In this document: in pieces, positions 5,660 through 64,000 of the stretch
Position numbering within the stretch: the stretch's first letter is position 1
How the letters are laid out: each line of letters starts with the position of its first letter
NCBI RefSeq assembly: GCF_902652985.1
Contig: NC_047019.1
Coordinates: 14,190,097 to 14,254,096 of the forward strand
Length of the DNA: 64,000 nucleotides
From: Pecten maximus
Lineage: Eukaryota
Reading direction: 5' to 3'
The notes under the pieces: generated by a model
Databases searched by the model: none
What the model saw: only the letters and a program-made list of their open reading frames with translations
What the model was told of the DNA's origin: nothing
Translations under genes and position numbers: made by a program

Positions 5660-6312
5660 GGTATACAACACAGGGGCTTGATACCACACAGGGGCTAGAT
5701 ACCACACAGGGGTTTGATACCACACAGGGGCTTGATACTACACAGGGGCTTGATACCACACAGTGGCTTGATATCACACAGGGGCTTGATACCATACAGG
5801 GGCTTGATACTACACAGGGGCTAGATACCACACATGGGCTTAATACTACACAGGGGCTTGATACTACACAGGGGCTAGAAACCACACAGGGGATTGATAC
5901 CACACAGGGGCTTGATACCACACATGGGCTTGATACCAAACAGGGGCTTAATACTACACATGGGCTTGATACTACACAGGGGCTAGATACCACACAGGGG
6001 CTTGATACCACACAGGTGTTTGATACTTCAAAGGGGCTTGACACCACACAGGGACTTGATACCACACATGGGCTTGATACCAAAATGGGGTTTAATACTA
6101 CACAGGGGCTTGATACCACACAGGGGCTTGATACTACACCGAGGCTTGATACTACACAGGGGCTAGATACCACACAGGGGCTAGATACCACACAGGAGCT
6201 TGATACCACACAGGGGCTTGACACCACACAGGGACTTGATACCACACAGGGGCTTGATACCACAAGGGCTTTATACTACACAGGGGCTTGATACCACACA
6301 TGGGTTAGACAC
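5660..6312. repeat. Continuation of the 20-bp satellite
   Basis: Same monomer as 1-5225. Confidence 0.95.
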
Positions 6313-7469: not shown

Positions 7470-8640
7470 AATACAACTAACTTTACTAAGTACCTCAAAA
7501 TGATCAGTAGGGTATTTATGGTACAAGTAACAATGTGTTCTGACAAGATGAGTAGGTTTTTTATGGTACAAGTACCAATGTTTTTCGACAAGATGAGTAG
7601 GGTATTTATGGTACAAGTACCAATGTGTTCTGACAAGATGAGTAGGGTATTTATGGTAGAAGTTTCAATGTGTTCTGACAAGATGAGTAGGGTATTTATG
7701 GTACAAGTACCAATGTGTTCTGACCAGATGAGTAAGTTATTTATGGTACAAGTACCAATGTGTTCTGACAAGATGAGTAGGGTATTTATGGTACAAGTAC
7801 CAATGTGTTCTGACAAGATGAGTAGGGTATTTATGGTACAAGTTTCAATGTGTTCTGACAAGATGAGTAAGTTATTTATGGTACAAGTACCAATGTTGTC
7901 CCACAAGATGAGTAGGGTATTTATGGTACAAGTACCAATGTGTTCTGACAAGATGAGTAGGTTATTTATGGTACAAGTTTCAATGTGTTCTGACAAGATG
8001 AGTAAGTTATTTATGGTACAAGTACCAATGTGTTCTGACAAGATGAGTAGGGTATTTATGGTACAAGTACCAATGTGTTCTGACAAGATGAGTAGGGTAT
8101 TTATGGTACAAGTTTCAATGTGTTCTGACAAGATGAGTAGGGTATTTATGGTACAAGTACCATTGTTGTCCCACAAGATGAGTAGGGTATTTATGGTACA
8201 AGTACCAATGTGTTCTGACAAGATGAGTAGGTTATTTATGGTACAAGTACCAATGTGTTCTGACAAGATTAGTAGGTTATTTATGGTACAAGTACCAATG
8301 TGTTCTGACAAGATGAGTAGGGTATTTATGGTACAAGTACCAATGTGTTCTGACAAGATGAGTAGGGTATTTATGGTACAAGTTTCAATGTGTTCTGACA
8401 AGATAAGTAGATTATTTATGGTACAAGTACCAATGTGTTCTGACAAGCTGAGTAGGGTATTTATGGTACAAGAACCAATGTGTTCTGACAAGATTAGTAG
8501 GTTATTTATGGTAGAAGTACCAATGTAGTCCAACAGGTTGAGTAGGGTATTTATGGTACAAGAACCAATGTACTCTGACAAGATGAGCAGGGTATTTATG
8601 GTACAAATACCAATGAAGTGTGATGTCTGACATGATGTGT
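7470..8640. repeat. Tandem 45-bp satellite, about 26 copies
   Basis: The unit 'gacaagatgagtagggtatttatggtacaagtaccaatgtgttct' has a 45-bp period. The 15-aa periodicity in the ORFs on both strands is an artefact of this. Confidence 0.95.
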
Positions 8641-14408: not shown

Positions 14409-15460
14409 AGCTCACCTGGTCCGAAGGACCATGGTGAGCTTATGCCATACTGTAGCATCTGTCGTCCGTCGTCCGTCCGTCCGTCCGTCCGTCAACAATT
14501 TACTTCTTCTTCATAACCACAGATCAGAATTTGACCAAATTTGGTCAGAAGCATCCCTATGGGGTGGGGGACTCAAAATTGTACAAATGGTGGGGCTGAC
14601 CCCCCAGGAGGCTATATTGATATAAATAGCTTCTTCTCTGAAACAAACAATGGATATCACTCATATTTGCCTGGTAGCATCACTATGGGGTGGGGATTCA
14701 AAATTGTAAAGATGATGGGGCTGACCCCCAGGGGCCTGAGGGGCGGGGCAAAATGTGGTCAATTTGGCTATATTGAATAAACGACTTCTTTTCTGAAACT
14801 GAGCAATGGATATCGCTCATATTTGCCTGGTAGCTAGCATCCATAGGGAGTGGGGATTTAAAATTGTACAAATGGTGAGGCTGACTCCCAGGGGGTCTGA
14901 GGGACGGGGCAAAGATGGGTCAATTTCGCTATATTGATATGAACAACTTCTCCTCTGAAACTAAGCAATTCATATCACTCATATTTGACTGGTAGCATCC
15001 CCTTGGGTTAAGGATTCAAAATTGTACAAATTACGGGGCTGACCCCTGGAGGCTGAGGGGCGGAGCCCAAAGGGGTCAATTTGGCTAAATTGATATGAAC
15101 AACTTCTTCTCTGAATCAACTCATATTTGTCTGATAACATCCTTTTGGGTAGGGATTCAAAATTTTATAAAAGAAGGAACTGACCCAAAGGGGGCAGAGG
15201 GCGGGGTCAATTGGTTTAAACAACTTCTTTTCTGAAACTAATCAATGAATATCACTCACATATGTGTCGTAGTATCCTTATGGGGTTGGGCAAAAAGTCA
15301 ATTTCATTTCATGGATTAATGCATTTTTTAGCATAAAAATCTCACATACCCATATAAAATGCCTATAATATATTGACATAGCAATACCAGTGACAAATAT
15401 ACTTAAGCATCATTTTTGTTTCATATCATGAAAACCAGGTGAGCGATACAGGGCCTCTTG
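14409..15460 (-). mobile_element. Helentron-like non-autonomous element (HINE), copy 1, in NB-ARC intron 5
   Basis: It has a terminal hairpin 'agctcacctggtccgaaggaccatggtgagct', a (gtcc)n microsatellite at 14458-14492, and an internal tandem array of about 150 bp with 5 copies. The other terminus is 'ccaggtgagcgatacagggcctcttg'. It is flanked by T on both sides, consistent with a TT target. Confidence 0.65.
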
Positions 15461-15844: not shown

Positions 15845-17420
15845 GGGTTGGTATCAGAAGAGGAGTGTTATTGCCTGGTTAAACTGACTGAGAGGAACCC
15901 CCTGGCTTTACGTACAATATGTAGTATTCTGAAAAACTGCTGCAGACAGGTAAAGCCAGCTGAGGTGATTAGACATCTGAGGAGCAATGAAGGAAAACTG
16001 TCCATGGTTGGTATGGAAAAATGCCTCCAGGAGAGTTTCGATAGACTTGAAGATAGCATGAAAAATATTCTGATACAGTTGACATTGTTCAAGACCTCAC
16101 CTTTTGACATCAATGCTGCCAGTGAAGTTTTAAGGGCTGACAATACTCCAAAACCACAAATTTTGCTGACAAAGATGAATCTATTCCATTTGAAAAGCCG
16201 TCACCTTATTGAAGTCCAAGATACGACCATTCAGACAGAAGGAAACCTGAAACAGAACATCCAGCCCAGACCTGAAGAATTGGGAAACATCAACAGAAAT
16301 GTCCTGTATTCCCTACATCCCCTGGTGTTTGAGTTTCTAACCAAACAAAAAAGTCAAATGTCAGCAGTATTGATGCCTGCAAAAATAAGGTTTTTTGAAT
16401 ACATGGAAAGAATTATTGGAATAATCGGAAAGGAGCAAGAAAATTATTATTATAGCACTCAGCTGTATCTAAGAGAGTATCACGTACATATTCAGAGCTA
16501 TTTTGACATTACATTAGAGCTTCAGGGAGATATTGAGACCAGAAGAGTAAATATGACCACATCAAACCGAATTTTGGAGATAGGCCGACGAGTCCTTAAT
16601 CAGGACGGGCAGCTACGATGGCTTCAGTGGGTTACAGATAGAGCTGAACGAAATGGCCAAGTTGATCAGTGGGTCTTCTACCGTGGCTACATGATACAAT
16701 TGCTGACAGAAATGGATACAATTTCTGACATACCAAGCATCATGGATGTTACCGAAAGAAAACTTGATATGAAACTGAGGAGACCTGATACTGGTATGAA
16801 AGTAGCTTTAGGAAATTATCACCATAAAAAGGCAATGTACTTCAAAAAAATAGATAATCGACAGAAGGTCATCGAAAACTTGGAAAAGGCTAGGCAGTAT
16901 TTAGAGGATGAGGACATCAGACCAATGACAAACATGGTTATGATACTTGCCAATGTTTACAACGACCTTGGGTGTTCGTATTATCTACATGATTCAGAGA
17001 AGTGCAGAAGCTATCATGAAAAAGCGATTTCAAAATCGTTAGAAGAACACCCAGATGTGGACATGTTCAAAAACAATCTTGCTGTTTGTCAGTTAAAAGA
17101 TATATTGGACCAGACTTTAGAGCAGTCATCCCGAGATGAGAACATCGAAGAGACACTTGAACATTTCAGCAATGTAATAGCAAAAGGAAGACGGCAAGGC
17201 ACAGATAATACAGATTCACACACAGTAGCTCTGAGAAACAGATCAACATTGTATCTGCACTTAAAACGGTACGAGGAAGCATATTCTGATGCTAAAAAGA
17301 GTCTTGAAGTGCGAAAAAAGATTTTGAAGGACCCGCATGAGGACTTGACTTTGAGCTGTAGCCACGTGGCCCGTATTTTGTATAACTGGGGCGACCAGCA
17401 GATACGCAGTGGGAATATAG
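15845..17420 (+). CDS. NB-ARC gene exon 6: GLPLA-like motif, winged-helix/helical region and TPR-like repeats
   Basis: The acceptor is ctcctgcag|G. A 1.6-kb ORF encodes 'TERNPLALRTICSIL' followed by TPR-like helices (for example ALGNYHHKKAMYF..., ALRNRSTLYLHLKRYEEAYSDAKKSLEV). The donor is atag|gtttgt at 17421 (phase 1). Confidence 0.8.
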
Positions 17421-19221: not shown

Positions 19222-19882
19222 AGCTAACCTGGTCCGAAGGACCAAGGTGAGCTTATGCCATACCGTGGCGTCTGGCGTCTGGCGTCCGTCGTCCGTCGTC
19301 CATCCGTCTGTCAACAATTGACTTATTTGACTTCTTTTTCATAACCGCTGATCGGAATTTCACCAAATTTGGTCAGAAGCATCCCTATGGGTAGGGGACT
19401 CAAAATTGTACAAATGGTGGGGCTGACCCCCCCAGGTGCCTGAGGGGTGGGGCCAAATGTGGTCAATTGAGCTATATTGATATAACGACTTCTCTGAAAC
19501 CAAGCAATGGATACAGCTCATATTTGTCTGGTAGCACCTACTTGGGGTAGGAATTCAAAATTGTACAAATGGTGGGGCTGACCCCCTGGAGGGCTGAGGG
19601 GCGGGGCCAAACAGGGTCAATTTGGCTAAATTGTTATAAACAACTTCTCCTCTGAAACTAAGCAATGGATATTGCTCATATTCGCCTGGTAGCATCCCCT
19701 CGGTGTAGAGATTCAAAATTGTACAATTGGTGAGGCTGACCCCCTGGGGAATGTTCATGTACCCATATAAAATGCTTATGATATATTGACATAGCAATAC
19801 CAGTGACAAATATACTTAAACATAGTTCTTGTTTCATATCTCATGAATCCAGGTGAGCGATACAGGCCCTCTGGGCCTCTTG
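19222..19882 (-). mobile_element. Helentron-like element copy 2, in NB-ARC intron 8, ending 36 bp before the acceptor
   Basis: It has the same hairpin (agctaacctggtccgaaggaccaaggtgagct), a (gtcc)n tract, tandem subrepeats and the 'caggtgagcgatacaggccctctgggcctcttg' terminus. Confidence 0.65.
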
Positions 19883-20452: not shown

Positions 20453-22439
20453 ATCTTTAATTAACAAGTACTTTAGCCATTTTTACAAAACATGGCCAGG
20501 GTGACAGAAAATTCTTTGATGCCAATTGTTTAAGTTTATAAGCTGTATTTGATATGTCACCTATTTCAGTCATTTTAACAGTTATATAATTGAGGATTTA
20601 GAGTTACATAAAATGTACAGAATCCATTTTGAGCTTTATAGTATTACAGAAATTTCAAATTTTGAAGTATTGAAATGTGTAAACGTGTGTAATGTTTCAT
20701 TTAAAAGACCTAGTGTAGAAATTCTGTGCTGTAGCCATAGTATCTTTATAAATGTTAAGCTTGCTGTACAGTAGTGAGTTGACAAAAGAAGACAATTCAC
20801 GATTAATTTACATTTCCTGTGATTGATTTCACAGCCAGTATTGTAAATTAGATATTTGTTTTTAAATTTTTATTGAACATTTTTATGCACCTCAAGGTAG
20901 AAAAAATCGGAGGCGAATGCCTTGATACAGAACATTCCGTATGTTGTTAGTGATATTTAGATGTTCAACTACCATGTTGATATCGCAGCACTCTGTTAAC
21001 TTTAAACATTTCATAGTTTCCACTTAAGTCACAATATGATTTAATTGTGCATTCAACAAGCATTTTAATTGTCTTAAAATGTATGTTATCGGCCAATAGC
21101 ATAAAAATGACATTGCCGTTTGTATCGTTAGTTTCGACTGGCTGCTGCAGCGTAATAATTTCTAACTGAAAATATTTCATCATTGAAAATAAATTCAATT
21201 ATAAGGATTAACTTGGATACATGTTTTATGTTATGTAGCTATAACATTTCCGTAACATAACAGTTAATTAATCCTAAAATGAATATGTGAATAAATAATG
21301 AATTCTTTATTTAGAATTACAAAACACGATAACATCCTTGTAAACAAACAAATGTTTTTTGTTAAAGTGTTGCTGGAAGAACAACCTTTGAAATATGTTA
21401 CTACTAGCAGATGTGAGTAAACGGCTGTCTTTTATTTTCTGTCACATATTTAATATGTAATGATACCTGCGGCACAATTTGCCCCAATCTGTTTACATCT
21501 ATCAAGTCTTTAAGACAATAATCCAGAATGCTTGAAAATGTGTGAGGGATCAAGAAGAATTTATTTTCCTGTATATATTTTCTTATTGCGATTTTGACTC
21601 TTTTAAAAAGAGCAAAACCGTTGTTTTACAATAAAAGCTGTTGTTTTGACTGTAAATCTTAAACTGTTCAGATTGATAAATAGTATGAGCATTCCTAAAG
21701 GAAGCCAGGATAATGTTATTCAACCTCATGATCAAAGAGATGAGGGGTTTTCTTTAGGAATCACATTCTTTGTTCATGAATAATTTTGTTTTTTTTTCTA
21801 TTGTTTTTGTTATCAAAAAAAAGAAATGGAAGAAAAATAAAACACTAGAAAATGCCTGGACATCTATAGTTACGGACACAAACGTCTCCTTTGACATCAC
21901 AATCATCAGATTCATAAAAAATGAACCATCATAAGCATTCAATAATTAAAGTTTCTTGTCAACAGAGATTCATATATTTTTAAAACATTTAATGTTAAAA
22001 TTTTACAGCACATTATTTTTATTTTTGAACTTTGGAGATTACAAGATGTATTTTTTTAATTCTCATGTTATTTTTAAACATTTTATCATGTTAATGCAAT
22101 ATAATAAAGTGCCATTGATTCTAACAGATTTTTATACAAAACTAATATAGTGTATTATGTAATGTTTTTGAATTAATTATGATTTTTAATGATGTATATT
22201 TACATATTGTTTTAAATTCATTTTGGAAATTAAATTTTCTGTCACATTCCAATCTATAATTTGCATGTCTTTGTAAATAATTATGAAGAGGTTGAAGTTT
22301 TTGTACAGAATACTTTTGGAGCATGTTTGATTTACAGACCATCACTAAATGAATTGAAATCATTTTCAATTTACGTCATAGAAACTGGTCGATCCAAAAT
22401 CATCTTTTCTTGACACAATTCCTTCCGATGCCTTTGTAG

Positions 22440-29934: not shown

Positions 29935-30595
29935 CAATTGTCCAATAATATTCCAGACAAAATTCCATCAAAACCCATTCAGTCGTACATGACTAATAGC
30001 AGTTTAAACGTTTTACCTCGATTTCCCATATTGGGCCTTTGCTCAGCATTGCCCAATAAATACCCCAGACAAAATTTCATTAAATCCATTCGGTCGTTCA
30101 AGACAATAAGGATTTTAAACTCTATTTACCTTTTTTTTCCAATATTGAGCCCCGACCCTCTGGTCCTTGAGGTGTCACATCCTCCTTTTATACAACATTG
30201 GCACCCTTTTGCCAAATAATACTCAAGACGAAATTCCATCAAATTCCATTCAGCCGCACAGGGCTAGTAGCGGTTTAAGCGTTTTCCCTCTATTTTTCCT
30301 ATCGGGTCTTAACACTCTAAGGTGCCACACTCTCCATTTATACTGTATCGTTTTCGCCCAACAATGCCCTAAATCCACCCAGTCGTTCAAGACAAGTAAA
30401 CGATTAAGCTATATTTTCACAATTCGATCCCATTACTCAGGCCCCAACAGAGCCAAGCCCTCCGTTTATACATTGGATCTCCACTGCTCAATAATACTTC
30501 AAATATACAATATTGCGCAGTATAATGGTCCATACCAAATCATCAATATCCATTCAGTCGTTCTGGATTAGTAGCGATTCTAAGGAAATGTTGAT
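29935..30595. repeat. Tandem repeat of about 120 bp, about 5 diverged copies
   Basis: The block 'aataatactcaagacgaaattccatcaaa(t/a)(t/c)ccattcag(t/c)cg...ttt(a/c)cct...tt(g/t)ggc' recurs. Confidence 0.75.
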
Positions 30596-34875: not shown

Positions 34876-37800
34876 CAAGAGGCCCATGGGCCTTAACGGT
34901 CATCTGACAAACACTTACACTTACAGCAGGGACACACCCCTCAATCCAGCATTATTACCATAAATTATTTATCGCAGCCAGTTATGTTTTAGATCAAATT
35001 TGGTTTTTATCCATTTAGCTTGTCCAGGAAGAGCAGCATCATAAAGCAAAATTTTAGCCAAGTTCCCATTTTTGGGGCATGCCCCTCTGTCCCAATAGGT
35101 CAGACAAGACTCATTTATATCAATTAGGATTGCCTTTCCCCAATGATGTTTCATACTAAATATAGTTGTAATCAATTAAGGCATTAAGGAGGAATTGCAT
35201 TTTAAAGAAATATTTAACCTAAGCGCTCCTTTTGCCCCATCTTTTTTTCCCCAGGGGTCAAACCTGTCTCATTAAAAAATATGATTGCCGTCACCTTATG
35301 TTTCACATCAAATTAGGTTGTAATCCACCAAAAGGTTAGGGAGGATTAGGATTTAACAGCAAATATTCACCAAAGTTCCCCTTTTGGGGCCCTGCCCCTC
35401 AGGCCCCAGGGGTCACACTAGCCTCGTTTATATAAAATATGACCACCCTTCCCAAAGGATGTTTCACACCATATTTCGTATTAATCCACCCAAGGGTTAG
35501 AGAGAAGTAGGATTTATAGCAAAAATTCACCAAAGTTCCCCTTTTGGGGCCCCGCCCCTCTGGCCCTAGGGGTCAAACCAGCCTCATTTATATAAAATAT
35601 GATTGTCCTCCTCCAATGATGTTTCACACCAAATTTGGTAATAATTCACTATGGGGGTTAGGAGGAGTAGTATTTTAAAGCAAAATTTCATCAAAGTTCC
35701 CCTTTTGGGGCCCTGGGCCCATATTCATAAAAAAACTTAAGTTAAGTATTTCACTTAAGAAAATACTTAAGTAGGACATTTGTACTTAAGTACTAAAATA
35801 AACTTAAGTATTTACTTAATTCAAGGTTTTATCTTAAGTTGTATTCATAAAACTACTTAAGCTTAAGTATTACTTAAGTTTTTACTTAAAGTTAAGTAAC
35901 GTCACGAGGATGTTTAACTTCCTTTAAAAATACTTAAGTAAATACTTAACAACTCAGGTGAAAGATGTCTTCACGAAATCGACAGAAATCAAATTGTTTT
36001 TAAGAAAAAAAATCATTAACTTCAGATTTTGTTGTATTCCATCATTTAAAACAAGATGTAAAGGTTTGAATCGAAGATGGAGGAGTCAATCTCACTGTCG
36101 TTAAGGCCCATTACGAAGTCAATACTACAACGACACGGAGCAATTGTAGTTTATAAGAAACATACCCATATACCAATCAAATTCTATTTAGATAAAACTT
36201 CATTTTTGTTTCTCTTGCTGACTTTGACAAAGCAGAAATACTGCCTCAAAGTTTTATTGTATCTTTTATTCATTAATCTAAAAAAATGTATATCTATAGA
36301 GTTCTTACCTGTGTATTAAAAAACATTGTGGTTACTTGTACTTTAACTTAAAACCCGTTCATGTGCATTCCAGCCCTGTCATGTAGTACTCCCCTGCTTT
36401 GATAACGAAACGAAAGTTTTAAATAACAGTTGATTGTTGTGACAGTTCTAGCATGCTTGGGGGTGGGATTTTACAGATCGTACAATGTAACTAGGGGTTT
36501 GATATGTACATTTCAACTGATGTTTGGTTTAGTGGAAATCAACTAAAACGTACTTGTTCTCCTTGACTCTACGATGAACACGATATGTGCATTTTTGGCC
36601 TGAACGACGAGGTTAGTCTAATTTTCGTGCATTCTTCCGACTCTCTCCTGATTAATACATTTGATCTGTTCAATCTGCCGGCAACCTGAACCCACGCTTG
36701 CCTATTTGCAGATGCCGACATTCCGTCCTTAAATCGTCCACGTATGACATGTTTACTTTCACTTGTAAACATGTACTAGCCTCACCATCGCCAGACATTC
36801 GTCCTTTGTCCAGTTTGGTCATCTCATCTTTTTTGCTGTTGCCATTTCCGGATTCTGATCGTCTTGGAATGCCAGGAACGCCGGTGCCAAATTTCACGTT
36901 TTACGAAAAACATCACGCAGCTACTTAACAACAACATAGCAACTACATGAAATACTTAAATGTTTATACTTAGCTAAGTATGTACTAAGTAAATACTTAA
37001 GTCGTTTATGAATAGTACTTAAGTTCAAACTTGAGTTTTATTTAACTAAGTAAAATATTTATAGTTAAGTATAACTTAAGTCAAACTTAAGTATTTAACT
37101 TAAGATTTTTTATGAATATGGGCCCTGCCCTTCTGGCCCCAGGGGCCACACCAGCCTAATTTATATAAAATATGACCACCTTCCCCCAATGATGTTTCAC
37201 ACCATATCTTGTTGAAATCCACCAAAGGGTTAAGGAGGAGTAGGATTTTATAGCAAAATTTCATCAAAGTTCCCCTTTTGGGGCCCTGCCCCTCTGGCCC
37301 CAGGGGCCACACCAGCCTCATTTATATAAAATATGACCACCCTCCCCCAATGATGTTTCACACAATATCTGGTTGAAATCCACCAAAGGGTTAAGGACGA
37401 GTAGGATTTTATAGCAAAATTTCATCAAAGTTCCCTTTTTTTGGCCCGTCACTCTGGCCCCAGGGCTCACACCAGCCTCATTTATATAAAATATGACCAC
37501 CCTCCCCCAATGATGTTTCACACCAAATTTAGTTGTAATCCACCAAAGGGTAAAGGAGGAGTAGGATTTTATAGCAAATATCCACCAAAGTTCCCTATTT
37601 AGGGCCCGCGAGGCCCCTCTGGCCCTAGGGGTCAGACCAGCCTCGTTTATATAAAACATGATTGTCCTCCTCCAACGATGTTCCACACCAAATTTTGTAA
37701 TAATCTACTTTTGGGTTTTGGAGGAGTAGTATTTTAAAGCAAAATTTCATCAAAGTTGCCCTTTTGGGGCCCCGCATCTCTGGCCCCAGGGGTCACACTA

Positions 37801-38477
37801 GCCTCATTTATATAAAATATGACCACCCTCCCCAAATGATTTTTCACAACATATCTGGTTGAAATCTACTAAAGGGTTAAGGAGGAGTAGGATTTTATAG
37901 CAAAATTTCATAAAAGTTCCCCTTTTGGGGCCCCACCCCTCAGGCCCCAGGGGTCACACTAGCCTCATTTATATAAAATATGACCACCCTCCCCAAATGA
38001 TTTTTCACAACATATCTGGTTGAAATCTACTAAAGGGTTAAGGAGGAGTAGGATTTTATAGCAAAATTTCATAAAAGTTCCCCTTTTGGGGCCCCGCCCC
38101 TCAGGCCCCAGGGGTCACACCAACTTCATTTATATAAAATATGACCGCCCTCCCCCAATGATGTTTCACACCAAATTTAGTTGTAATCCACCCAAGGGTA
38201 AAGGAGGAGTAGGATTTTATAGCAATATTCACCTAAGTTCCCTTTTCGGCGCCCCGCCCTTCTGGCCCCAGGGGTCAGACCAGCCTCATTTATATAAAAT
38301 ATGATTGCCCTCCCCCAATGATGCTTCAAACCAAATTTGGAAGTAATCCACCCAAGCGTTAATGAGGAGTAGCGTTTTGAAAGAAAAAGTTTACGGACGG
38401 CGCACGGCGGACGGCGGACGACGACGGACGAAGCACGATGACTATAGGTCATCCTGACCCTTTGGGTCAGATGACCT
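34876..38477 (+). mobile_element. Helentron-like element carrying a satellite array of about 160 bp (about 20 monomers) and a nested 1.4-kb TIR transposon. It sits in intron 2 of the small-protein gene.
   Basis: The 5' terminus is 'caagaggcccatgggcc'. The 3' end has (ggac)n at 38398-38431 and the hairpin 'aggtcatcctgaccctttgggtcagatgacct' ending at 38477. A 160-bp unit 'ccccttttggggccccgcccctctggccccaggggtcacac...' occupies 34990-38400. The element is inserted between A|A (T|T on the other strand). Confidence 0.65.
35715..37125. mobile_element. Nested non-autonomous DNA transposon with perfect 20-bp TIRs (gggcccatattcataaaaaa / ttttttatgaatatgggccc)
   Basis: It interrupts one 160-bp satellite monomer, and the flanks reconstitute the monomer with a 3- to 5-bp duplication (ctg/ccctg). 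The interior is rich in the 'acttaagt' palindrome. It has no recognisable transposase ORF. Confidence 0.65.
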
Positions 38478-40648: not shown

Positions 40649-41624
40649 CAAGAGGCCCAGAGGGCCTGTATTGCTCACCTGGATTTCATGAGATATGAAA
40701 CAAGAATGATGATTAATTATAAGTATATTTGTCACTGGTATTGCTATGTCAATATATCATAGGCATTTTATATGGGTACGTGAGGATTTTATGTCAAAAA
40801 ATGCATTAATCCATGAAATAAAATTAACTTTTGGCACAACCCCATAGGGATGCTACCACACAAATGTGAGTGATATCCATTGCTTAGTTTCAGAAAAGAA
40901 GTTGTTTAAACCAATTGACCCCTTTTGAACCCGCCCTCTGCACCCCTGGGGGAGTGGGGGTCAGTTCCTTCCTTTATAAAATTTTGAATCCCTACCCAAA
41001 AGGATGCTACCAGGCAAATATGAGCGATATCCTTTGCTTAGTTTCAGAAAAGAAGTTGTTCATATCAATTCAGCCAAATTGACCCCTCTTGGCCCCGCCC
41101 CTCAGGCCCCCGGGGGGGTCAGCCTCACCATTTGTACAATTTTGAATGCCCACCCAATAGTGATGCTACCAGGCAAATATGAGCGATAGCCATTGCTTGG
41201 TTTCAGAGAAGAAGTCGTTTATATCAATATAGCCAGATAGACCACATTTGGCCCCGCCCCTCAGGCCCCTGGGGGGTCAGCCCCATCATTTGTACAATTT
41301 TGAATCCCCAACCCATAGCGATGCTACCAGGCAAATATGAGTGATAGCCATTACTTGGTTTCAGAGAAGAAGTCGTTTATATCAATAGCGCAAAAATGAC
41401 CCCTTTTGGCCCCGCCCCAGAGGCCCCCAGGGGGTCAGCCCCATCATTTGTACAATTTTGAGTCCCCTACCCATAGGGATGCTTCTGACCAAATTTGGTC
41501 AAATTCTGATGTGTGGTTATGAAGACGTCAATTGTTGACGGACAGACGGACGACAGACGACGGACGGACGACAGACGCAACAGTATGGCATAAGCTCACC
41601 TTGGTTCTTCGGACCAGGTGAGCT
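40649..41624 (+). mobile_element. Helentron-like element copy 3, in intron 4 of the small-protein gene, ending 26 bp before the acceptor
   Basis: The 5' end is 'caagaggcccagagggcctgtattgctcacctgg'. It has 4 to 5 tandem units of about 150 bp, a (gacg/ggac)n tract, and the 3' hairpin 'agctcaccttggttcttcggaccaggtgagct'. The flanks are A|A. Confidence 0.7.
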
Positions 41625-48723: not shown

Positions 48724-49206
48724 CTGGGCAATGAAACAATTGTTTGTAGTGACAGAATTCCAAACCAGTGACATCAAGAATAGATTTTACATTTCATAAG
48801 TAATATTCTTTATGGGGACCTCACACCAGATGAAATTTTCATATTGTAAAAGTGAAACTGATAAGTTAAGGATGCATTCATTGAATTGTAAAATTAACAT
48901 GTAACTGGATAAGACATCCCTATATATAGATATGTACTTACCTGTACTCCTTCTTATTAACAGGTATCTGGACTAGACATCCCTATATATAGATATGTAC
49001 TTACCTGTACTCCTTCATGGAGACCTCATTGTTCTCATACAGGTGAAGAAGTCTCAGCAGTTTTTGGTCTGAAATTGAACACCAGAATGCAAAAGGTAAT
49101 GCAATCAGTAATATTGAGTAATTAATTGTCTTTTAATTAAAAAGAGAAATATGATAACCAGTATCAATGTATCATGACCTAGTTTACTGGTAGAAAACAA
49201 GCTACA

Positions 49207-52175
49207 ACCCTGTACATACCTGTTTGTGACAGGGTGGTACTGTAGGGCCCTGTACATACCTGTTTGTGACAGAGTAGCACTGTAGGGCCCTGTACATACC
49301 TGTTTGTGACAGAGTGGCACTATAGGGCCCTGTACATACCTGTTTGTGACAGGGTGGCACTGTAGGGCCCTGTACATACCTGTTTGTGACAGAGTGGCAC
49401 TGTAGGGCCCTGTACATACCTGTTTGTGACAGAGTGGCACTGTAGGGCTCTGTACATACCTGTTTGTGACAGAGTGGCACTATAGGGCCCTGTACATACC
49501 TGTTTGTGACAGGGTGGCACTGTAGGGCCCTGTACATACCTGTTTGTGACAGAGTGGCACTATAGGGCCCTGTACATACCTGTTTGTGACAGAGTGGCAC
49601 TATAGGGCCCTGTACATACCTGTTTGTGACAGAGTAGCACTGTAGGGCCCTGTACATACCTGTTTGTGACAGAGTGGCACTATAGGGCCCTGTACATACC
49701 TGTTTGTGACAGGGTGGCACTGTAGGGCCCTGTACATACCTGTTTGTGAAAGAGTGGCACTGTAGGGCCCTGTACATACCTGTTTGTGACAGAGTGGCAC
49801 TGTAGGGCCCTGTACATACCTGTTTGTGACAGAGTGGCACTATAGGGCCCTGTACATACCTGTTTGTGACAGGGTGGCACTGTAGGGCCCTGTACATACC
49901 TGTTTGTGACAGAGTGGCACTATAGGGCCCTGTACATACCTGTTTGTGACAGAGTGGCACTGTAGGGCCCTGTACATACCTGTTTGTGACAGGGTGGCAC
50001 TGTAGGGCCCTGTACATACCTGTTTGTGACAGAGTAGTACTGTAGGGCCCTGTACATACCTGTTTGTGACAGGGTGGCACTGTTGGGCCCTGTACATACC
50101 TGTTTGTGATAGAGTGGCACTGTAGGGCCCTGTACATACCTGTTTGTGACAGAGCAGTACTGTAGAGCCCTGTACATACCTGTTTGTAACAGGGTGGCAC
50201 TGTTGGGCCCTGTACATACCTGTTTGTGACAGGGTGGCACTGTAGGGCCCTGTACATACCTGTTTGTGACAGAGTAGTACTGTAGGGCCCTGTACATACC
50301 TGTTTGTGACAGGGTGGCACTGTAGGGCCCTGTACATACCCGTTTGTGACAGGGTGGCACTGTAGGGCCCTGTACATACCTGTTTGTGACAGAGTGGCAC
50401 TGTAGGTCCCTGTACATACCTGTTTGTGACAGAGTGGCACTGTAGGGCCCTGTACATACCTGTTTGTGACAGAGTGGCACTGTAGGGCCCTGTACATACC
50501 TGTTTGTGACAGAGTGGCACTATAGGGCCCTGTACATACCTGTTTGTGACAGGGTGGCACTGTTGGGCCCTGTACATACCTGTTTGTGACAGAGTGGCAC
50601 TGTAGGGCCCTGTACATACCTGTTTGTGACAGAGTAGTACTGTAGGGCCCTGTACATACCTGTTTGTGACAGGGTGGCACTGTAGGGCCATGTACATACC
50701 CGTTTGTGACAGGGTGGCACTGTAGGGCCCTGTACATACCTGTTTGTGACAGAGTGGTACTGTAGGGCCCTGTACATACCTGTTTGTGACAGGGTGGCAC
50801 TGTAGGGCCCTGTACATACCTGTTTGTGACAGGGTGGCACTGTAGGGCCCTGTACATACTTGTGTGTGACAGGGTGGCACTGTAAGGCCCTGTACATACC
50901 TGTTTGTGACAGGGTGGCACTGTAGGTCCCTGTACATACCTGTTTGTGACAGAGTGGTACTGTAGGGCCCTGTACATACCTGTGTGTGACAGGGTGGCAC
51001 TGTAGGTCCCTGTACATACCTGTTTGTGACAGAGTGGTACTGTAGGGCCCTGTACATACCTGTTTGTGACAGGGTGGTACTGTAGGGCCCTGTACATACT
51101 TGTGTGTGACAGGGTGGCACTGTAAGGCCCTGTACATACCTGTTTGTGACAGGGTGGCACTGTAGGTCCATGTACATACTTGTGTGTGACAGGGTGGTAC
51201 TGTAGGTCCCTGTACATACCTGTTTGTGACAGGGTGGCACTGTTGGTCCCTGTACATACCTGTTTGTGACAGGGTGGCACTGTAAGGCCCTGTACATACC
51301 TGTTTGTGACAGGGTGGCACTGTAGGTCCCTGTACATACCTGTTTGTGACAGGGTGGTACTGTAGGGCCCTGTACATACCTGTTTGTGACAGAGTGACAC
51401 TATAGGTCCCTGTACATACCTGTGTGTGACAGGGTGGCACTGTAGGTCCCTGTACATACCTGTTTGTGACAGAGTGGCACTGTAGGGCCCTGTACATACC
51501 TGTGTGTGACAGGGTGGCACTGTAGGTCCCTGTACATACCTGTTTGTGACAGGGTGGTACTGTAGGGCCCTGTACATACATGTTTGTGACAGAGTGGCAC
51601 TATAGGGCCCTGTACATACCTGTGTGTGACAGGGTGGCACTGTAGGTCCCTGTACATACCTGTTTGTGACAGAGTGGCACTGTAGGGCCCTGTACATACC
51701 TGTTTGTGACAGAGTGGCACTGTAGGGCCCTGTACATACCTGTTTGTGACAGAGTGGTACTGTAGGTCCCTGTACATACCTGTTTGTGACAGAGTGGCAC
51801 TGTAGGGCCCTGTACATACCTGTTTGTGACAGGGTGGCACTGTAGGCTCCTGTACATACCTGTTTGTGACAGAGTGGCACTGTTGGGCCCTGTACATACC
51901 TGTTTGTGACAGAGTGGCACTATTGGGCCCTGTACATACCTGTTTGTGACAGAGTGGCACTATAGGGCCCTGTACATACCTGTTTGTGACAGGGTGGCAC
52001 TGTAGGCTCCTGTACATACCTGTTTGTGACAGAGTGGCACTGTTGGGCCCTGTACATACCTGTTTGTGACAGAGTGGCACTTTTGGGCCCTGTACATACC
52101 TGTTTGTGACAGAGTGGCACTGTAGGGCCCTGTACATACCTGTTTGTGACAGGGTGGCACTGTAGGCTCCAAGGT
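49207..52175. repeat. 40-bp satellite A, about 74 monomers, inside an intron of the large gene. Each minus-strand monomer contains a donor-like aacag|gtatgt and an acceptor-like tgtacag.
   Basis: The plus-strand unit is 'ccctgtacatacctgtttgtgacagRgtggcactgtaggg'. The minus strand is open in all 3 frames, giving the 892-aa ORF artefact. Confidence 0.95.
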
Positions 52176-52248
52176 ATATGCCTATATGACTGGAGGTAGA
52201 GCAGTCTGGACGAAGCTCCACAAGTGTCATCAGGAGATCCACCAAACA
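52140..52248 (-). CDS. Large gene exon (tentative). Its last roughly 35 nt and its GTATGT donor are the first monomer of the 40-bp satellite.
   Basis: The acceptor is attattatagag|TG and the donor is aacag|gtatgt at 52139. The 109-nt exon is phase-compatible with both the upstream (52775) and downstream (48723) exons. It encodes VFGGSPDDTCGASSRLLYLQSYRHIPWSLQCHPVTN. Confidence 0.4.
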
Positions 52249-52774
52249 CTCTATAATAATATATCAACTTATATAGTCATCATCTTGTTTGTTTGAAGTA
52301 TACACATTAAACAATAGAAAACTTACATCATCTCATCAGGACACATCTTCTTTAACAGATAAAATTACAACTGAAAGTCATTTTTAACTAATACCGCTAT
52401 TATTTGTGATCATGGTAGCTACATGTACATGACATCTATATTTTTTTGAAAATAGCACCATTGTATTTGCTATCCCTCAAAACCATTATATAAAGATTGA
52501 CAGCTTAATCTGACAATATCTCAATATTAGTCAACCAGTATTCCATTATGTTTCTATAGTTACGGTTATTGAAATACTTGATGCTTTTCTCTCTAGTATA
52601 ACACTTAACAAACAATAACTTGCTCTGTGCCACAAATGTGACAATTTTTTTTAAATATTTTGTTTGTTTGTTTATCTATAATTTATCTACCATGATATAA
52701 TCTAGTTTATCAAAAAGTTGATGCTTTCATGAAATACACAACACCAAATAAAGCCATATTTCTTATTAACTCAC

Positions 52775-53015
52775 CTTTGACCTCAGATCCTGCCTCGTCA
52801 AGTATGATCGACAAAAACATTGAGTGACTGAGTACCATGTCAAAGATAGTGTTGGGAGTCAGATCAAGTGTCTCTCCACTTGAGTACACCATCTTCACCA
52901 GCGTGTTGAGGATCTTATGAGTACTGGCATTGGAGTACTGGGATCGTAAACATGCTTTCACAAAGGACGAGAAATCTTTATGTACCTCAGATGGCTTCAA
53001 TTGTTGGATGACATC
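52775..53015 (-). CDS. Large gene exon
   Basis: The acceptor is tttgtatacag|G and the donor is caaag|gtgagt. The exon encodes DVIQQLKPSEVHKDFSSFVKACLRSQYSNASTHKILNTLVKMVYSSGETLDLTPNTIFDMVLSHSMFLSIILDEAGSEVK. Confidence 0.7.
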
Positions 53016-53830
53016 CTGTATACAAACATGGATAATATCATTAATTACTAACATCTTATAATTATATACAAACATGGATAATATCATTAATTACTAATAT
53101 CTTATAATTATATACAAACATGGATAATATCATTAATTACCAACATCTTATAATTATGTACAAACAAGGATAATATCATTAATTACTAACATCTTATAAT
53201 TATGTACAAACATGGATAATATCATTAATTACTAACATCTTATAATTATGTACAAACATGGATAATATCATTAATTACTAACATCTTATAATTATGTACA
53301 AACATGGATAATATCATTAATTACTAATATCTTATAATTATGTACAAACATGGATAATATCATTAATTACTAACATCTTATAATTATGTACAAACATGGA
53401 TAATATCATTAATTACTGTCCTGTATACAAACATGGATAATATCATTAATTACTAACATCTTATAATTATGTACAAACATGGATAATATCATTAATTACT
53501 GTCCTGTATACAAACATGGATAATATCATTAATTACTAATATCTTATAATTATATACAAACATGGATAATATCATTAATTACTAATATCATATAATTATG
53601 TACAAACATGGATAATATCATTAATTACTAATATCTTATAATTATGTACAAACATGGATAATATCATTAATTACTAATATCTTATAATTATATACAAACA
53701 TGGATAATATCATTAATTACTAACATCTTATAATTATGTACAAACATGGATAATATCATTAATTACTAATATCTTATAATTATGTACAAACATGGATAAT
53801 ATCATTAATTACTAATATCATATAATTATG
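53016..53830. repeat. 47-bp minisatellite, about 17 copies, starting exactly at the 3' splice site of exon 52775-53015. Units include acceptor-like 'tgtatacag' variants.
   Basis: The unit is 'acaaacatggataatatcattaattactaacatcttataattatRta'. Copies at about 53400 and 53500 carry 'cctgtatacaaacatgg', whose minus strand reads ccatgtttgtatacag|g. Confidence 0.9.
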
Positions 53831-54394
53831 AATGGCCATTTTGTCATGATACCTGGGCCCTGAAGAGTAGTTCAATGTTTCTTTATTTGGACTCTTGACA
53901 ACCGACAGAAACCTTCAATTGTGAAATACACTCAAAAATAGAAATGTTGTAAAGTGCTGTTTTCAATGAGGTAATGAATTTTTCCAAGAACAAGCTCTGG
54001 TATAAGCCCACACATGTCCATCGCTTTTTAAGCAAAAACTTCTAACATCAACTATTTTATTGTCCTTCAGCATTTGGTCAAATGTTATGTGTTGAAAACA
54101 GATAACATATTTACATTTGTGCCACATTTCCCTATTGAAACAATGCCAAGAGGCAGTTGCTACCATACATCTATAACACCCAGTGGGTCATGTGACATTT
54201 AAAAAAGGCAGTAATTCATTTGTTGGTTCAGTTTTCAAAACTGATAAAAATGGTTAGGCGATTTAAGTATTGAACAGTTGTTTTAATGTTGTTATATGGT
54301 AGTAAGATGTATGTTGGACATGTACAAATGTCATGGGAACCAGTTGTTCATCATTAAACATTTACATGATGATTTCTTGCTTTGTATGTTGCCA

Positions 54395-54470
54395 GGCCAA
54401 ACAAGATTATATTGAACTCACCTGACTGGCCAGGCCAAACAAGATTATATTGAACTCACCTGACTGGTTT
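54395..54470. repeat. 38-bp tandem duplication spanning the donor site of exon 54460-54716
   Basis: 'ggccaaacaagattatattgaactcacctgactgg' occurs twice. The second copy places a duplicate 'cag|gtgagt' donor 38 nt into the intron. Confidence 0.85.
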
Positions 54471-54716
54471 TAGACAGAAGACTTTGAAGGTATTCCACTA
54501 AATCCCCATCTAATTTCTCCTTTTTCTGAAGAGTGTACATCAAGCATCTCCGACACACAGAGTAAACCTGGGCCTCAGTAATGACAGGCTCAGTGCTGAC
54601 CCCTGGTGTAGATGAGGAAAGGTAACGAAGCACTTGGATGTGATCCCTTTTCACAGTTTTTTTGGCCTTAATACTACTAGTAATGCTCCGATAAATGTCT
54701 TTCTGTTTGTCAATGT
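54460..54716 (-). CDS. Large gene exon
   Basis: The acceptor is ctttttttccag|AC and the donor is agtcag|gtgagt. The exon encodes IDKQKDIYRSITSSIKAKKTVKRDHIQVLRYLSSSTPGVSTEPVITEAQVYSVCRRCLMYTLQKKEKLDGDLVEYLQSLLSKTSQ. Confidence 0.7.
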
Positions 54717-58232: not shown

Positions 58233-58330
58233 CCATCATTTCGTTCTGTAATCATTAGATACCTTTTCTGATGGTAACCATGACAATACGTTCTGTAATC
58301 ATTAGATACCTTTTCTGATGGTAACCATGA
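58233..58330. repeat. 47-bp tandem duplication spanning the donor site of exon 58310-58461
   Basis: 'gttctgtaatcattagataccttttctgatggtaaccatgacaataY' occurs twice. This duplicates the last 33 nt of the exon plus the gtatct donor about 47 nt into the intron. Confidence 0.85.
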
Positions 58331-58461
58331 CAATATGTACTTGATGACCCCACTCTCTAGCTGATCTCCATGGCAAGCGTTCAGCATACACACCAGAGGG
58401 AGAGGCTGTATTTGGGAGTGGAAAAGGTCAAGGACAATTCCAGACATGTAGTTTTTCACAC
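58310..58461 (-). CDS. Large gene exon
   Basis: The acceptor is ctactcaacag|GT and the donor is gaaaag|gtatct. The exon encodes VKNYMSGIVLDLFHSQIQPLPLVCMLNACHGDQLESGVIKYILSWLPSEK. Confidence 0.6.
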
Positions 58462-59130: not shown

Positions 59131-59198
59131 TCGGAGGCATATTTTCTGTCTTGGTCAGATGTTCCAAAGCAATCACCACCATTGGGCTGTAGGGAAAC
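59131..59198 (-). CDS. Large gene candidate upstream exon (tentative). The gene may continue 5' beyond the satellite or the window end.
   Basis: The acceptor is ctctcattgtag|G and the donor is ccga|gtaagt. The exon encodes (F)PYSPMVVIALEHLTKTENMPP, and its phase matches exon 58310-58461. Confidence 0.3.
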
Positions 59199-59280
59199 CT
59201 ACAATGAGAGTGAACATGATTAAACACTGGGCTATATCTGTATCTAAATCATTGTTCTAGTTAAACTAAAACACATTTAT

Positions 59281-62200
59281 AGTGACTGTATCAACACAAT
59301 TGTCATGTAAGTACTATGACTGTATCCATACATCCACACAATTGTCATGTAAGTACTATGACTGTATCCATACATCCACACAATTGTCATGTAAGTACTA
59401 TGACTGTATCCATACATCCACACAATTGTCATGTTAGTACTATGACTGAATCCATACATCCACACAATTGTCATGTAAGTACTATGACTGTATCCATACA
59501 TCCACACAATTGTCATGTAAGTACTATGACTGTATCCATACATCCACACAATTGTCATGTTAGTACTATGACTGTATCCATACATCCACACAATTGTCAT
59601 GTTAGTACTATGACTGTATCCATACATCCACACAATTGTCATGTTAGTACTATGACTGAATCCATACATCCACACAATTGTCATGTAAGTACTATGACTG
59701 TATCCATACATCCACACAATTGTCATGTAAGTACTATGACTGTATCCATACATCCACACAATTGTCATGTAAGTACTACGACTGTATCCATACATCCACA
59801 CAATTGCCATGTAAGTACTATGACTGTATCCATACATCCACACAATTGTCATGTTAGTACTATGACTGTATCCATACATCCACACAATTGTCATGTTAGT
59901 ACTATGACTGAATCCATACATCCACACAATTGTCATGTAAGTACTACGACTGTATCCATACATCCACACAATTGTCATGTTAGTACTATGACTGTATCCA
60001 TACATCCACACAATTGTCTTGTACGTACTATGACTGTATCCATACATCCACACAATTGTCATGTAAGTACTACGACTGTATCCATACATCCACACAATTG
60101 TCATGTAAGTACTATGACTGTATCCATACATCCACACAATTGTCATGTTAGTACTATGACTGAATCCATACATCCACACAATTGTCATGTAAGTACTACG
60201 ACTGAATCCATACATCCATACAATTGTCATGTAAGTACTATGACTGTATCCATACATCCACACAATTGCCATGTAAGTACTATGACTGTATCCATACATC
60301 CACACAATTGTCATGTAAGTACTATGACTGTATCCATACATCCACACAATTGTCATGTAAGTACTATGACTGTATCCATACATCCACACAATTGTCATGT
60401 AAGTACTATGACTGAATCCATACATCCATACAATTGTCATGTAAGTACTACGACTGAATCCATACATCCACACAATTGTCATGTAAGTACTATGACTGTA
60501 TCCATACATCCACACAATTGTCATGTTAGTACTATGACTGAATCCATACATCCACACAATTGTCATGTAAGTACTACGACTGAATCCATACATCCATACA
60601 ATTGTCATGTAAGTACTATGACTGTATCCATACATCCACACAATTGCCATGTAAGTACTATGACTGTATCCATACATCCACACAATTGTCATGTACGTAC
60701 TATGACTGTATCCATACATCCACACAATTGTCATGTAAGTACTATGATTGTATCCATACATCCACACAATTGTCATGTAAGTACTATGACTGTATCCATA
60801 CATCCACACAATTGTCATGTAAGTACTATGACTGTATCCATACATCCACACAATTGTCATGTTAGTACTATGACTGTATCCATACATCCACACAATTGCC
60901 ATGTAAGTACTATGACTGTATCCATACATCCACACAATTGTCATGTAAGTACTATGACTGAATCCATACATCCACACAATTGTCATGTAAGTACTATGAT
61001 TGTATCCATACATCCACACAATTGTCATGTAAGTACTACGACTGTATCCATACATCCACACAATTGTCATGTAAGTACTACGACTGTATCCATACATCCA
61101 CACAATTGTCATGTTAGTACTATGACTGAATCCATACATCCACACAATTGTCATGTAAGTACTATGACTGAATCCATACATCCACACAATTGTCATGTTA
61201 GTACTACAACTGTATCCATACATCCACACAATTGTCATGTTAGTACTATGACTGTATCCATACATCCACACAATTGTCATGTTAGTACTATGACTGAATC
61301 CATACATCCACACAATTGTCATGTAAGTACTACAACTGTATCCATACATCCACACAATTGTCATGTAAGTACTATGACTGAATCCATACATCCACACAAT
61401 TGTCATGTTAGTACTATGACTGAATCCATACATCCACACAATTGTCATGTTAGTACTATGACTGAATCCATACATCCACACAATTGTCATGTTAGTACTA
61501 TGACTGAATCCATACATCCACACAATTGTCATGTAAGTACTATGACTGAATCCATACATCCACACAATTGTCATGTTAGTACTATGACTGAATCCATACA
61601 TCCACACAATTGTCATGTTAGTACTATGACTGAATCCATACATCCACACAATTGTCATGTAAGTACTATGACTGAATCCATACATCCACACAATTGTCAT
61701 GTTAGTACTACAACTGTATCCATACATCCACACAATTGTCATGTACGTACTATGACTGAATCCATACATCCACACAATTGTCATGTTAGTACTATGACTG
61801 TATCCATACATCCACACAATTGTCATGTAAGTACTATGACTGAATCCATACATCCACACAATTGTCATGTTAGTACTACGACTGAATCCATACATCCACA
61901 CAATTGTCATGTAAGTACTATGACTGTATCAATACATCCACACAATTGTCATGTTAGTACTATGACTGAATCCATACATCCACACAATTGTCATGTTAGT
62001 ACTATGACTGAATCCATACATCCACACAATTGCCATGTAAGTACTATGACTGAATCCATACATCCACACAATTGTCATGTTAGTACTATGACTGAATCCA
62101 TACATCCACACAATTGTCATGTAAGTACTATGACTGAATCCATACATCCACACAATTGTCATGTAAGTACTATGACTGAATCCATACATCCACACAATTG

Positions 62201-64000
62201 TCTTGTAAGTACTATGACTGAATCCATACATCCACACAATTGCCATGTAAGTACTATGACTGAATCCATACATCCACACAATTGTCATGTAAGTACTATG
62301 ACTGTATCCATACATCCACACAATTGTCATGTAAGTACTATGACTGAATCCATACATCCACACAATTGTCATGTTAGTACTACAACTGTATCCATACATC
62401 CACACAATTGTCATGTTAGTACTATGACTGTATCCATACATCCACACAATTGTCATGTTAGTACTATGACTGAATCCATACATCCACACAATTGTCATGT
62501 TAGTACTATGACTGAATCCATACATCCACACAATTGCCATGTAAGTACTATGACTGTATCCATACATCCATACAATTGTCATGTAAGTACTATGACTGTA
62601 TCCATACATCCACACAATTGTCATGTAAGTACTATGACTGTATCCATACATCCACACAATTGTCATGTAAGTACTATGATTGTATCCATACATCCACACA
62701 ATTGTCATGTAAGTACTATGATTGTATCCATACATCCATACAATTGTCATGTTAGTACTATGATTGTAACCATACATCCATACAATTGTCATGTTAGTAC
62801 TATGACTGAATCCATACATCCATACAATTGTCATGTAAGTACTATGACTGTATCCATACATCCACACAATTGTCATGTAAGTACTATGACTGTATCCATA
62901 CATCCACACAATTGTCATGTAAGTACTATGATTGTATCCATACATCCACACAATTGTCATGTAAGTACTACGACTGTATCCATACATCCACACAATTGCC
63001 ATGTAAGTACTATGACTGAATCCATACATCCACACAATTGTCATGTTAGTACTATGACTGAATCCATACATCCACACAATTGTCATGTTAGTACTATGAC
63101 TGAATCCATACATCCACACAATTGCCATGTAAGTACTATGACTGTATCCATACATCCACACAATTGCCATGTACGTACTATGACTGTATCCATACATCCA
63201 CACAATTGTCATGTTAGTACTATGACTGAATCCATACATCCACACAATTGTCATGTTAGTACTATGACTGAATCCATACATCCACACAATTGCCATGTAA
63301 GTACTATGACTGTATCCATACATCCACACAATTGCCATGTAAGTACTATGACTGTATCCATACATCCACACAATTGTCATGTAAGTACTATGACTGTATC
63401 CATACATCCATACAATTGTCATGTAAGTACTATGACTGTATCCATACATCCACACAATTGTCATGTTAGTACTATGACTGTATCCATACATCCACACAAT
63501 TGTCTTGTAAGTACTATGACTGAATCCATACATCCACACAATTGCCATGTAAGTACTATGACTGTATCTATACATCCATACAATTGTCATGTAAGTACTA
63601 TGACTGTATCCATACATCCATACAATTGCCATGTAAGTACTATGACTGTATCTATACATCCATACAATTGTCATGTAAGTACTATGACTGTATCCATACA
63701 TCCATACAATTGTCATGTAAGTACTATGACTGTATCCATACATCCACACAATTGTCATGTAAGTACTATGACTGTATCCATACATCCATACAATTGCCAT
63801 GTAAGTACTATGACTGTATCTATACATCCATACAATTGTCATGTAAGTACTATGACTGTATCCATACATCCACACAATTGTCATGTAAGTACTATGACTG
63901 TATCCATACATCCATACAATTGCCATGTAAGTACTATGACTGTATCCATACATCCACACAATTGTCATGTAAGTACTATGACTGTATCCATACATCCATA
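59281..64000. repeat. 40-bp satellite B, about 118 monomers, running to the window edge
   Basis: The unit is 'atccatacatccacacaattgtcatgtaagtactatgactgt'. It resembles satellite A in the acatacc/acatcca...ttgtgaca/ttgtca blocks. The 877- and 688-aa ORFs are artefacts. Confidence 0.95.

Follow-up and report, generated by a model that had tools for sequence, protein, structure and literature searches.

The stretch of DNA analysed here (the window) comprises 64,000 nucleotides of the Pecten maximus genome. It is AT-rich eukaryotic DNA in which minus-strand open reading frames match the Pfam family NopRA1. A HMMER search with the joined open reading frame pieces retrieved a protein of 2261 amino acids that is 100% identical across the exons. 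This protein is XP_033740037.1, the P. maximus nucleolar pre-ribosomal-associated protein 1-like (URB1), and its gene lies on the minus strand. The exon map was obtained by placing XP_033740037.1 on the window by exact matches with GT-AG at all junctions. The spliced mapping is unambiguous and gives 18 exons in the window, of which the following surround the intron considered here:

52775-53015, minus strand: URB1 coding exon adjoining the array, amino acids 1438-1518 of XP_033740037.1, starts with GATGTC (exact spliced mapping)
54460-54716, minus strand: upstream URB1 exon, amino acids about 1352-1437, its donor opens the array-bearing intron (spliced mapping)
52140-52250 and 49005-49068, minus strand: the next downstream exons (spliced mapping)

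The array-bearing intron extends over 53016-54459 (1444 nt). The acceptor of exon 52775-53015 reads catgtttgtatacag|GATGTC and is in phase 0. This exon had been proposed in a preliminary description made from the letters of the window, and the spliced RefSeq protein reproduces it exactly; its boundary is drawn from this model protein and from conservation between species. An intron occupies the same position in the URB1 loci of Mizuhopecten yessoensis, Argopecten irradians and Ylistrum balloti. In these three scallops the upstream exon ends with ...AAAACCA(G/C)TCAG|gt and the next exon starts with (D/Q)VI(Q/E)Q(L/V)KPSE, which is DVIQQLKPSE in Pecten. There is no insertion at the array junction in the RefSeq model protein or the three scallop orthologues, which supports use of the exon-adjacent acceptor in mRNA only indirectly. 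Going by this cross-scallop comparison, both the position of the acceptor and its cag|GATGT junction are ancestral.

Structure of the array and its boundary with the exon

Tandem Repeats Finder (TRF), run on the whole window, detected a tandem array at 53021-53830 (period 46, 18.0 copies, 91% matches, score 1340). Together with a count of the core motif and dissection of the units, this gives the following features:

53016-53830, minus strand: intronic minisatellite of 16 units of 46 nt and two of 37 nt (TRF, core-motif count, unit dissection)
53382-53418, minus strand: short unit 1, 37 nt, ends on a junction-type copy and is part of an 83-nt higher-order unit (unit dissection)
53465-53501, minus strand: short unit 2, 37 nt, belongs to the second copy of the 83-nt higher-order unit (unit dissection)

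The preliminary description had placed a minisatellite at 53016-53830 with a period of 47 bp; TRF and unit dissection bear out the coordinates and correct the period to 46. The array is 815 nt long and has the minus-strand consensus ATAAGATGTTAGTAATTAATGATATTATCCATGTTTGTACATAATT. Its 46-nt units are AT-rich and about 94% identical to each other (mean pairwise identity 93.8% with the units anchored on the core). The 27-nt core ACAAACATGGATAATATCATTAATTAC occurs 18 times in the 64-kb window, always within the array, and was not found in 100 shuffles. No further copy of the core lies outside the array in the 64 kb when up to 3 mismatches are allowed.

Tandem arrays are prone to assembly collapse and expansion, and an amphioxus globin repeat of a related sort was reported to be mis-assembled in the draft genome (PMC3087553), so a misassembled copy number or unit order has to be considered. 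It is hardly credible here. The array is only 815 nt long, its unit variants follow a non-trivial pattern that includes the two short units, which collapse or expansion would not yield, and similar arrays are present in four independent scallop assemblies and one abalone assembly.

The array runs from 53830 down to 53016 and is contiguous with the exon starting at 53015. Self-comparison at an offset of 46 shows homology that ends at 53017-53019, i.e. 1-3 nt before the exon. At the corresponding place the standard 46-nt unit lacks the acceptor CAG and reads ...tgtacataattataag... (...ataattataag...). At offsets of 405 and 488 the homology reaches 53014, 2 nt into the exon; past these two common nucleotides there is no repeat homology deeper in the exon, where 10 of 24 positions match, which is the chance level. 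On its exon side the array ends 0-3 nt from the 3' splice site. That the first unit includes the acceptor context, as first described, holds in so far as a junction-type unit is found at 53014, but the CAG is not a part of the standard unit, given where the offset-46 homology ends.

Units of the junction type number three among the 18, with starts at 53014, 53419 and 53502. On the plus strand they begin with TCCTGTATAC (gtatacag|GA when read on the minus strand), and the CAG with two exon nucleotides is found in these three units only. They are set apart by the 8-nt segment TACAGGAC, which is not derivable from the standard unit and has 7 of 8 positions in common with the real junction TACAGGAT. 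Their starts are spaced by 405 nt (83 + 7 x 46) and 83 nt (46 + 37), and just before each of the two internal ones stands a 37-nt unit ending in ...ACTG. Exon nucleotides have been captured in 2 of the 17 extra units and to an extent of 2 nt only, compared with 20 exon nt in an array of Ylistrum and 26 in one of Haliotis. The two exon nucleotides would be common to the internal copies by chance roughly once in 10-16 cases and are a weak sign of boundary-crossing duplication when taken alone; the common CAG is the firmer part of the case for a duplication that crossed the boundary. A 5-nt stretch, GATGT, common to the exon start and the standard unit was dropped as evidence, its alignment needs a 6-nt indel and is not significant alone.

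The orthologous introns are 1184 nt long in Mizuhopecten, 331 nt in Argopecten and 927 nt in Ylistrum. Comparison with them, suggested in the preliminary description, gave no match to the array unit in the three URB1 loci. The introns could not be aligned over their whole length among the orthologues, and signal is confined to about the last 21 nt. The comparison with the orthologous acceptors was made for positions -24 to -4 in P. maximus, all of which are part of the repeat unit. Identical positions number 14 of 21 for Mizuhopecten (P=0.002), 12 of 21 for Ylistrum (P=0.04) and 10 of 21 for Argopecten (P=0.2), against 7.5 +- 2.0 of 21 for non-orthologous acceptor pairs. Since the exon-side half of the unit matches the Mizuhopecten intron end, the array grew from native intron sequence of the acceptor region. 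On this comparison the exon-side half of the unit is the ancestral end of this intron, and the array was not brought from elsewhere. The homology, with an array limit within 0-3 nt of the acceptor, supports the earlier suggestion that the array was seeded at the 3' splice site.

Element-derived satellites are numerous in bivalve genomes, and several families with units of about 160 nt occur in the window itself. The 46-nt unit could in principle come from such a dispersed family, having inserted beside the exon and supplied a new acceptor. We think this very unlikely, as the core has no other copy in the 64 kb even with up to 3 mismatches, the unit is absent from the three orthologous loci, the acceptor and its junction are ancestral, and the half of the unit nearer the acceptor shows homology to the end of the Mizuhopecten intron.

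An ordinary intronic minisatellite might also have come to end beside the acceptor by chance, with no causal tie to the splice site. Tandem arrays with a period of at least 10 cover 35% of the window and 39% of the URB1 intron nucleotides in it, the period-46 homology stops 1-3 nt short of the exon, and in the survey described below random placement predicts about 4 acceptor-reaching arrays among 58, with 2 observed. Acceptor-reaching arrays are thus no commoner than under random placement, and therefore abutment alone would not show a link to the splice site. The sequence TACAGGA of the internal units, however, is not derivable from the standard unit and equals the junction, including the CAG and 2 exon nucleotides. 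The match between the exon-proximal half of the unit and the Mizuhopecten intron end also argues that the unit is the acceptor region itself. For this array, in this intron, the probability of an end at most 3 nt from the acceptor is about 4 in 630. A coincidental abutment is accordingly improbable in our judgement.

Acceptor copies and the growth of the array

The following elements of the array-bearing intron bear on its splicing:

53016-53059, minus strand: exon-proximal unit, the working 3' splice site, with CAG at 53016-53018, a weak pyrimidine tract and a branch-point-like TTAAT (exon map, PWM, branch-point scan)
53419-53445, minus strand: decoy acceptor 1, AG at 53421-53422, 405 nt upstream, identical to the real acceptor from -25 to +2 (cag|GA)
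53502-53528, minus strand: decoy acceptor 2, AG at 53504-53505, 488 nt upstream and out of frame, identical to the real acceptor from -25 to +2
54391-54467, minus strand: 38-nt x2 donor duplication of the array-bearing intron, 100% identity (TRF), 8 exon and 30 intron nt

In the exon-proximal unit the A of TTAAT lies at 53041 (-26) and is the putative branch point. The branch-point scan found TTAAT to be the only candidate of the yUnAy type, and it is present in every unit.

Acceptors were scored with a PWM covering -25 to +3, built from the 113 acceptors of four scallop URB1 genes with the tested site left out (112). Real acceptors have a leave-one-out median of 8.3 bits, while 5698 intronic decoy AGs have a mean of -1.1 bits and a 99th percentile of 8.8 bits. 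The real site at 53015 scores 8.7 bits and the two internal copies 8.6 bits. The 'attataag' AGs of the standard units score 0.7-2.5 bits and the 'ttag' and 'caggacag' AGs below 0 bits. A full acceptor is thus present in 3 of the 18 units, and the remaining AGs of the array do not exceed 2.5 bits. The 'tgtatacag' variant noticed near 53400 and 53500 in the preliminary description does recur, at the AGs of the two decoys. Its reading as a cryptic acceptor stands at the level of sequence, given the identity from -25 to +2 and the nearly equal scores, and we limit the claim to that level. The two decoys are strong and are transcribed before the real site, and they could well be used at some rate; their silence is an assumption. 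A reading-frame check showed that stop codons follow after three codons if either decoy is used.

The donor of the same intron lies at 54460|54459. Within 54391-54467 the sequence CAGTCAG|GTGAGT occurs twice, and both copies score 11.1 bits. This duplication was absent from the preliminary description.

Amphioxus genes contain repeats known as 'mirages', described as head-to-tail minisatellites in introns that are contiguous with an exon, at 5' and 3' boundaries (PMC3087553). Cases given in that report are Adh3 and the globin genes BflGb6 and BflGb9, and it describes normal splicing as retained and unit turnover as being like that of other minisatellites (PMC3087553). The BflGb6 repeat takes in an intron's 3' end and the beginning of exon 2 (PMC3087553). 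The scallop array resembles these repeats in being intronic, head-to-tail and contiguous with an exon, with a splice signal repeated in units. Unlike in a mirage, only 2 exon nt are included, in 2 of 17 extra units, and the dominant unit is purely intronic with its AG lost. The host also differs, being a mollusc and not a cephalochordate, and normal splicing and allelic length variation are mirage features, the present case being described from one P. maximus sequence. The array fits the mirage kind only loosely. In the literature searched we found no report of boundary arrays in molluscs, and mirages were described there mainly from amphioxus; the locus is a known kind of array in a phylum with no earlier report found.

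The minisatellite in this URB1 intron of P. maximus is probably young and specific to its lineage, a boundary array like the amphioxus mirages, and most likely arose as a neutral by-product. It would have started with a tandem duplication, by replication slippage or unequal exchange, of about the last 46 nt of the intron. If the array was copied from the intron end, the unit next to the exon is for that reason still the working 3' splice site. The dominant 46-nt unit would have come to lack the CAG, leaving AGs that are poor acceptors. At least one later duplication of an 83-nt block crossing the boundary by 2 nt would have produced the two perfect acceptor copies; the block with the acceptor and two exon nucleotides may have been duplicated twice or triplicated at once. 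Growth on the exon side by another seven 46-nt units would afterwards have moved the decoys to their present positions, 405 and 488 nt upstream.

The array would have no function of its own, lengthening the intron by about 0.8 kb and supplying decoy acceptors. Splicing is expected at the copy adjoining the exon through exon definition, since this copy is close to the enhancers of the exon and to the exon's donor, 241 nt downstream. A transcript made with a decoy would have an immediate stop codon. Most other units, we propose, are harmless because they lack the AG. From these sequences we infer the order of the duplications, the branch point, the silence of the decoys and the neutrality of the array. 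The very active tandem duplication of scallop introns most likely produced it as a by-product that is neutral or carries a slight cost.

The acceptor copies might instead form a regulatory decoy array, capturing some splicing into transcripts with a premature stop that undergo nonsense-mediated decay, so that the length of the array tunes URB1 output; or the array might be an intronic splicing enhancer or silencer. On the PWM the decoys reach the score of the real site (8.6 against 8.7 bits), every unit contains the branch-point-like TTAAT, decoy use would lead to immediate stops and the same intron also has a duplicated donor, all of which would suit such a role. A conserved device is contradicted by the absence of the array from URB1 of the three other scallops. 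The CAG has been lost in 15 of the 18 units and is absent in the eight nearest to the exon, which resembles decoy avoidance and not decoy use. The RNA of the array has no unusual structure, and a single protein of this gene is found in the protein collection. We consider a regulatory function unlikely.

Folding of a 300-nt stretch of the array, compared with shuffles, gave an MFE z-score of -0.32, with no unusual RNA structure in that stretch, and on this ground the idea that the decoys are hidden by RNA structure was rejected. No Rfam families were found in 43000-64000, the part of the window that holds URB1.

Junction-anchored arrays in URB1 genes

Three further tandem duplications in the window include a donor of URB1:

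49208-52166, minus strand: satellite A, 40 nt x74, its first unit made of the last 27 nt of exon 52140-52250 and CAG|GTATGT
58242-58335: donor-spanning duplication, 47 nt x2, 26 exon nt included
48893-49016: donor-spanning duplication, 63 nt x2, 12 exon nt included

With the 38-nt duplication counted, the window has tandem duplications across 4 of its 17 URB1 donors. The repeated donors equal the real one, with two copies each outside satellite A, and in satellite A 71 copies are identical to the real donor CAG|GTATGT. The composition of its first unit confirms that satellite A is anchored on an exon-intron junction, as the preliminary description had it. The same description had put satellite A in the intron consecutive to the array-bearing one, and this is not so, as the intron 52251-52774 (524 nt), which separates exons 52775-53015 and 52140-52250, and the latter exon intervene.

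The F7 gene of humans has, in intron 7, a VNTR of 37-bp elements, the first of which spans the boundary between exon 7 and IVS7 (PMC1557585). The pseudo-donors of this VNTR are functional but silent, the most upstream of the identical sites being chosen by 5'-to-3' scanning (PMC1557585). Satellite A and the 38-nt donor duplication are exact counterparts of the F7 VNTR, likewise anchored on a junction and containing identical pseudo-splice sites. A donor-spanning first element is found in satellite A and in the duplications at 54391-54467, 58242-58335 and 48893-49016, but not in the 53016-53830 array. Unlike the F7 case that array lies at an acceptor, and its decoys are transcribed before the real site, so a different selection rule must apply.

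To place these arrays in context the URB1 gene was surveyed in seven species, comprising four scallops, an abalone, a mussel and a fish. The four scallop genes contain 58 arrays, of which 57 were assigned to introns. Of the 58, 18 begin within an exon, at a depth of 6-51 nt, and extend across its donor, with 4.0 expected by random placement, and none of 10,000 permutations reached 18. Only 2 of 58 reach an acceptor, against 4.2 expected by random placement: these are the Pecten array at 53016-53830 and a 35 nt x7 array of Ylistrum. An array end lies within 50 nt of an acceptor for 3 of the 57 intron-assigned arrays.

Each donor array is built from the exon end and intron start of its own species. 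Five orthologous donors have arrays of different unit length in two species each, and since the unit lengths differ at orthologous donors these arrays arose independently. The donor of a 111-nt exon (...GAYSATLSQT / ...GAYGATLSHT) has arrays of 40 nt x74 in Pecten, 29 nt x2 in Argopecten and 79 nt x12 in Haliotis asinina, and may be a hotspot:

52140-52166 of the Pecten window: array at the 111-nt exon donor
30050-30108 of the Argopecten URB1 locus: array at the 111-nt exon donor
36029-36972 of the Haliotis URB1 locus: array at the 111-nt exon donor (61 exon nt)

Clear acceptor-spanning arrays are seen at two other loci. At 16631-16880 of the Ylistrum URB1 locus lies the 35 nt x7 array, which is 99% identical and has units of ...ttaatag| with 20 exon nt. 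At 20633-20891 of the Haliotis URB1 locus there is an array of 63 nt x4 with units of ...gtgtcag| and about 26 exon nt. The annotated protein uses the last copy in both.

In Mytilus galloprovincialis URB1 we found 24 arrays, none of them at junctions, and 5% of the intron nucleotides are in arrays. URB1 of the fish Megalops atlanticus has one array, which is not at a junction. The junction-anchored pattern is not universal, even among bivalves. When 20-mer probes were scored for being repeated nearby, the proportion was 13% at donors, 0.9% at acceptors and 37-39% at interior intron positions. The donor figure is low because arrays cover so much of the introns, and the excess at donors therefore concerns the start positions of arrays and not their coverage.

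It is conceivable, though on balance doubtful, that in molluscs, clearly in scallops and an abalone, boundary-spanning minisatellites are produced in a systematic way, 5' splice sites being strongly preferred. Selection would act against decoys upstream of acceptors and so protect the latter, and the array described here would be an uncommon escape whose units have for the most part lost the AG. Systematic generation at donors, if true, would suggest either that splice sites or transcription are tied to a mutational hotspot or that rows of U1-binding sites are selected for. The excess of donor-spanning arrays with the scarcity of acceptor-reaching ones is a more interesting lead than the single locus. 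Boundary-duplicating minisatellites are frequent in scallop and abalone URB1, and the asymmetry between donors and acceptors, if genome-wide, would bear on intron growth, on the tolerance of tandem splice sites and on models of intron gain by tandem duplication.

In one such model, due to Rogers, introns are gained or slide by tandem duplication across AG|GT proto-splice sites, with cases in Drosophila (PMC2891723) and in the potato RdRp (PMC4974935). The scallop array likewise involves a tandem duplication that includes a splice signal and leaves the extra copy intronic. It differs in that no new intron or moved boundary has resulted and the intron position is ancestral.

The single locus has a modest value as a natural test case for 3' splice-site choice, with three identical acceptor modules and two identical donors in one intron. 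It is also a warning for gene annotation, where a predictor may choose the wrong copy.

Among the repeat classes of a scallop genome, tandem repeats form the largest (PMC10225492). The 46-nt unit is like those of ordinary scallop intronic VNTRs in being AT-rich, about 94% identical and lineage-specific, whereas its array differs from them in ending on an acceptor and containing acceptor copies.

The window contains other large tandem arrays. An array of 42 nt x112 occupies 59290-63998, in the intron upstream of exon 59131-59200; it begins about 90 nt from the acceptor and runs off the end of the window, its far end possibly lying at the upstream donor. The array is open for 877 codons on the minus strand, for the sole reason that this frame of the unit is free of stops. 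Translation of the 42-nt unit was compared with residues 790-840 of URB1 alone and is not found in them. An 18-nt x355 array at 1-6304 reaches the start of the window, and a 45-nt x25 array lies at 7502-8615.

Satellites of about 160 nt are known from bivalves. G+C-rich units of about 156-161 nt form short tandem arrays in both orientations at 14610-15115, 19400-19747, 35298-35715, 37120-38372 and 40956-41483 of the window. These arrays have motifs such as GGGGCTGACCCC and GGGCCCCGCCCC in common and look like a dispersed, element-derived repeat family.
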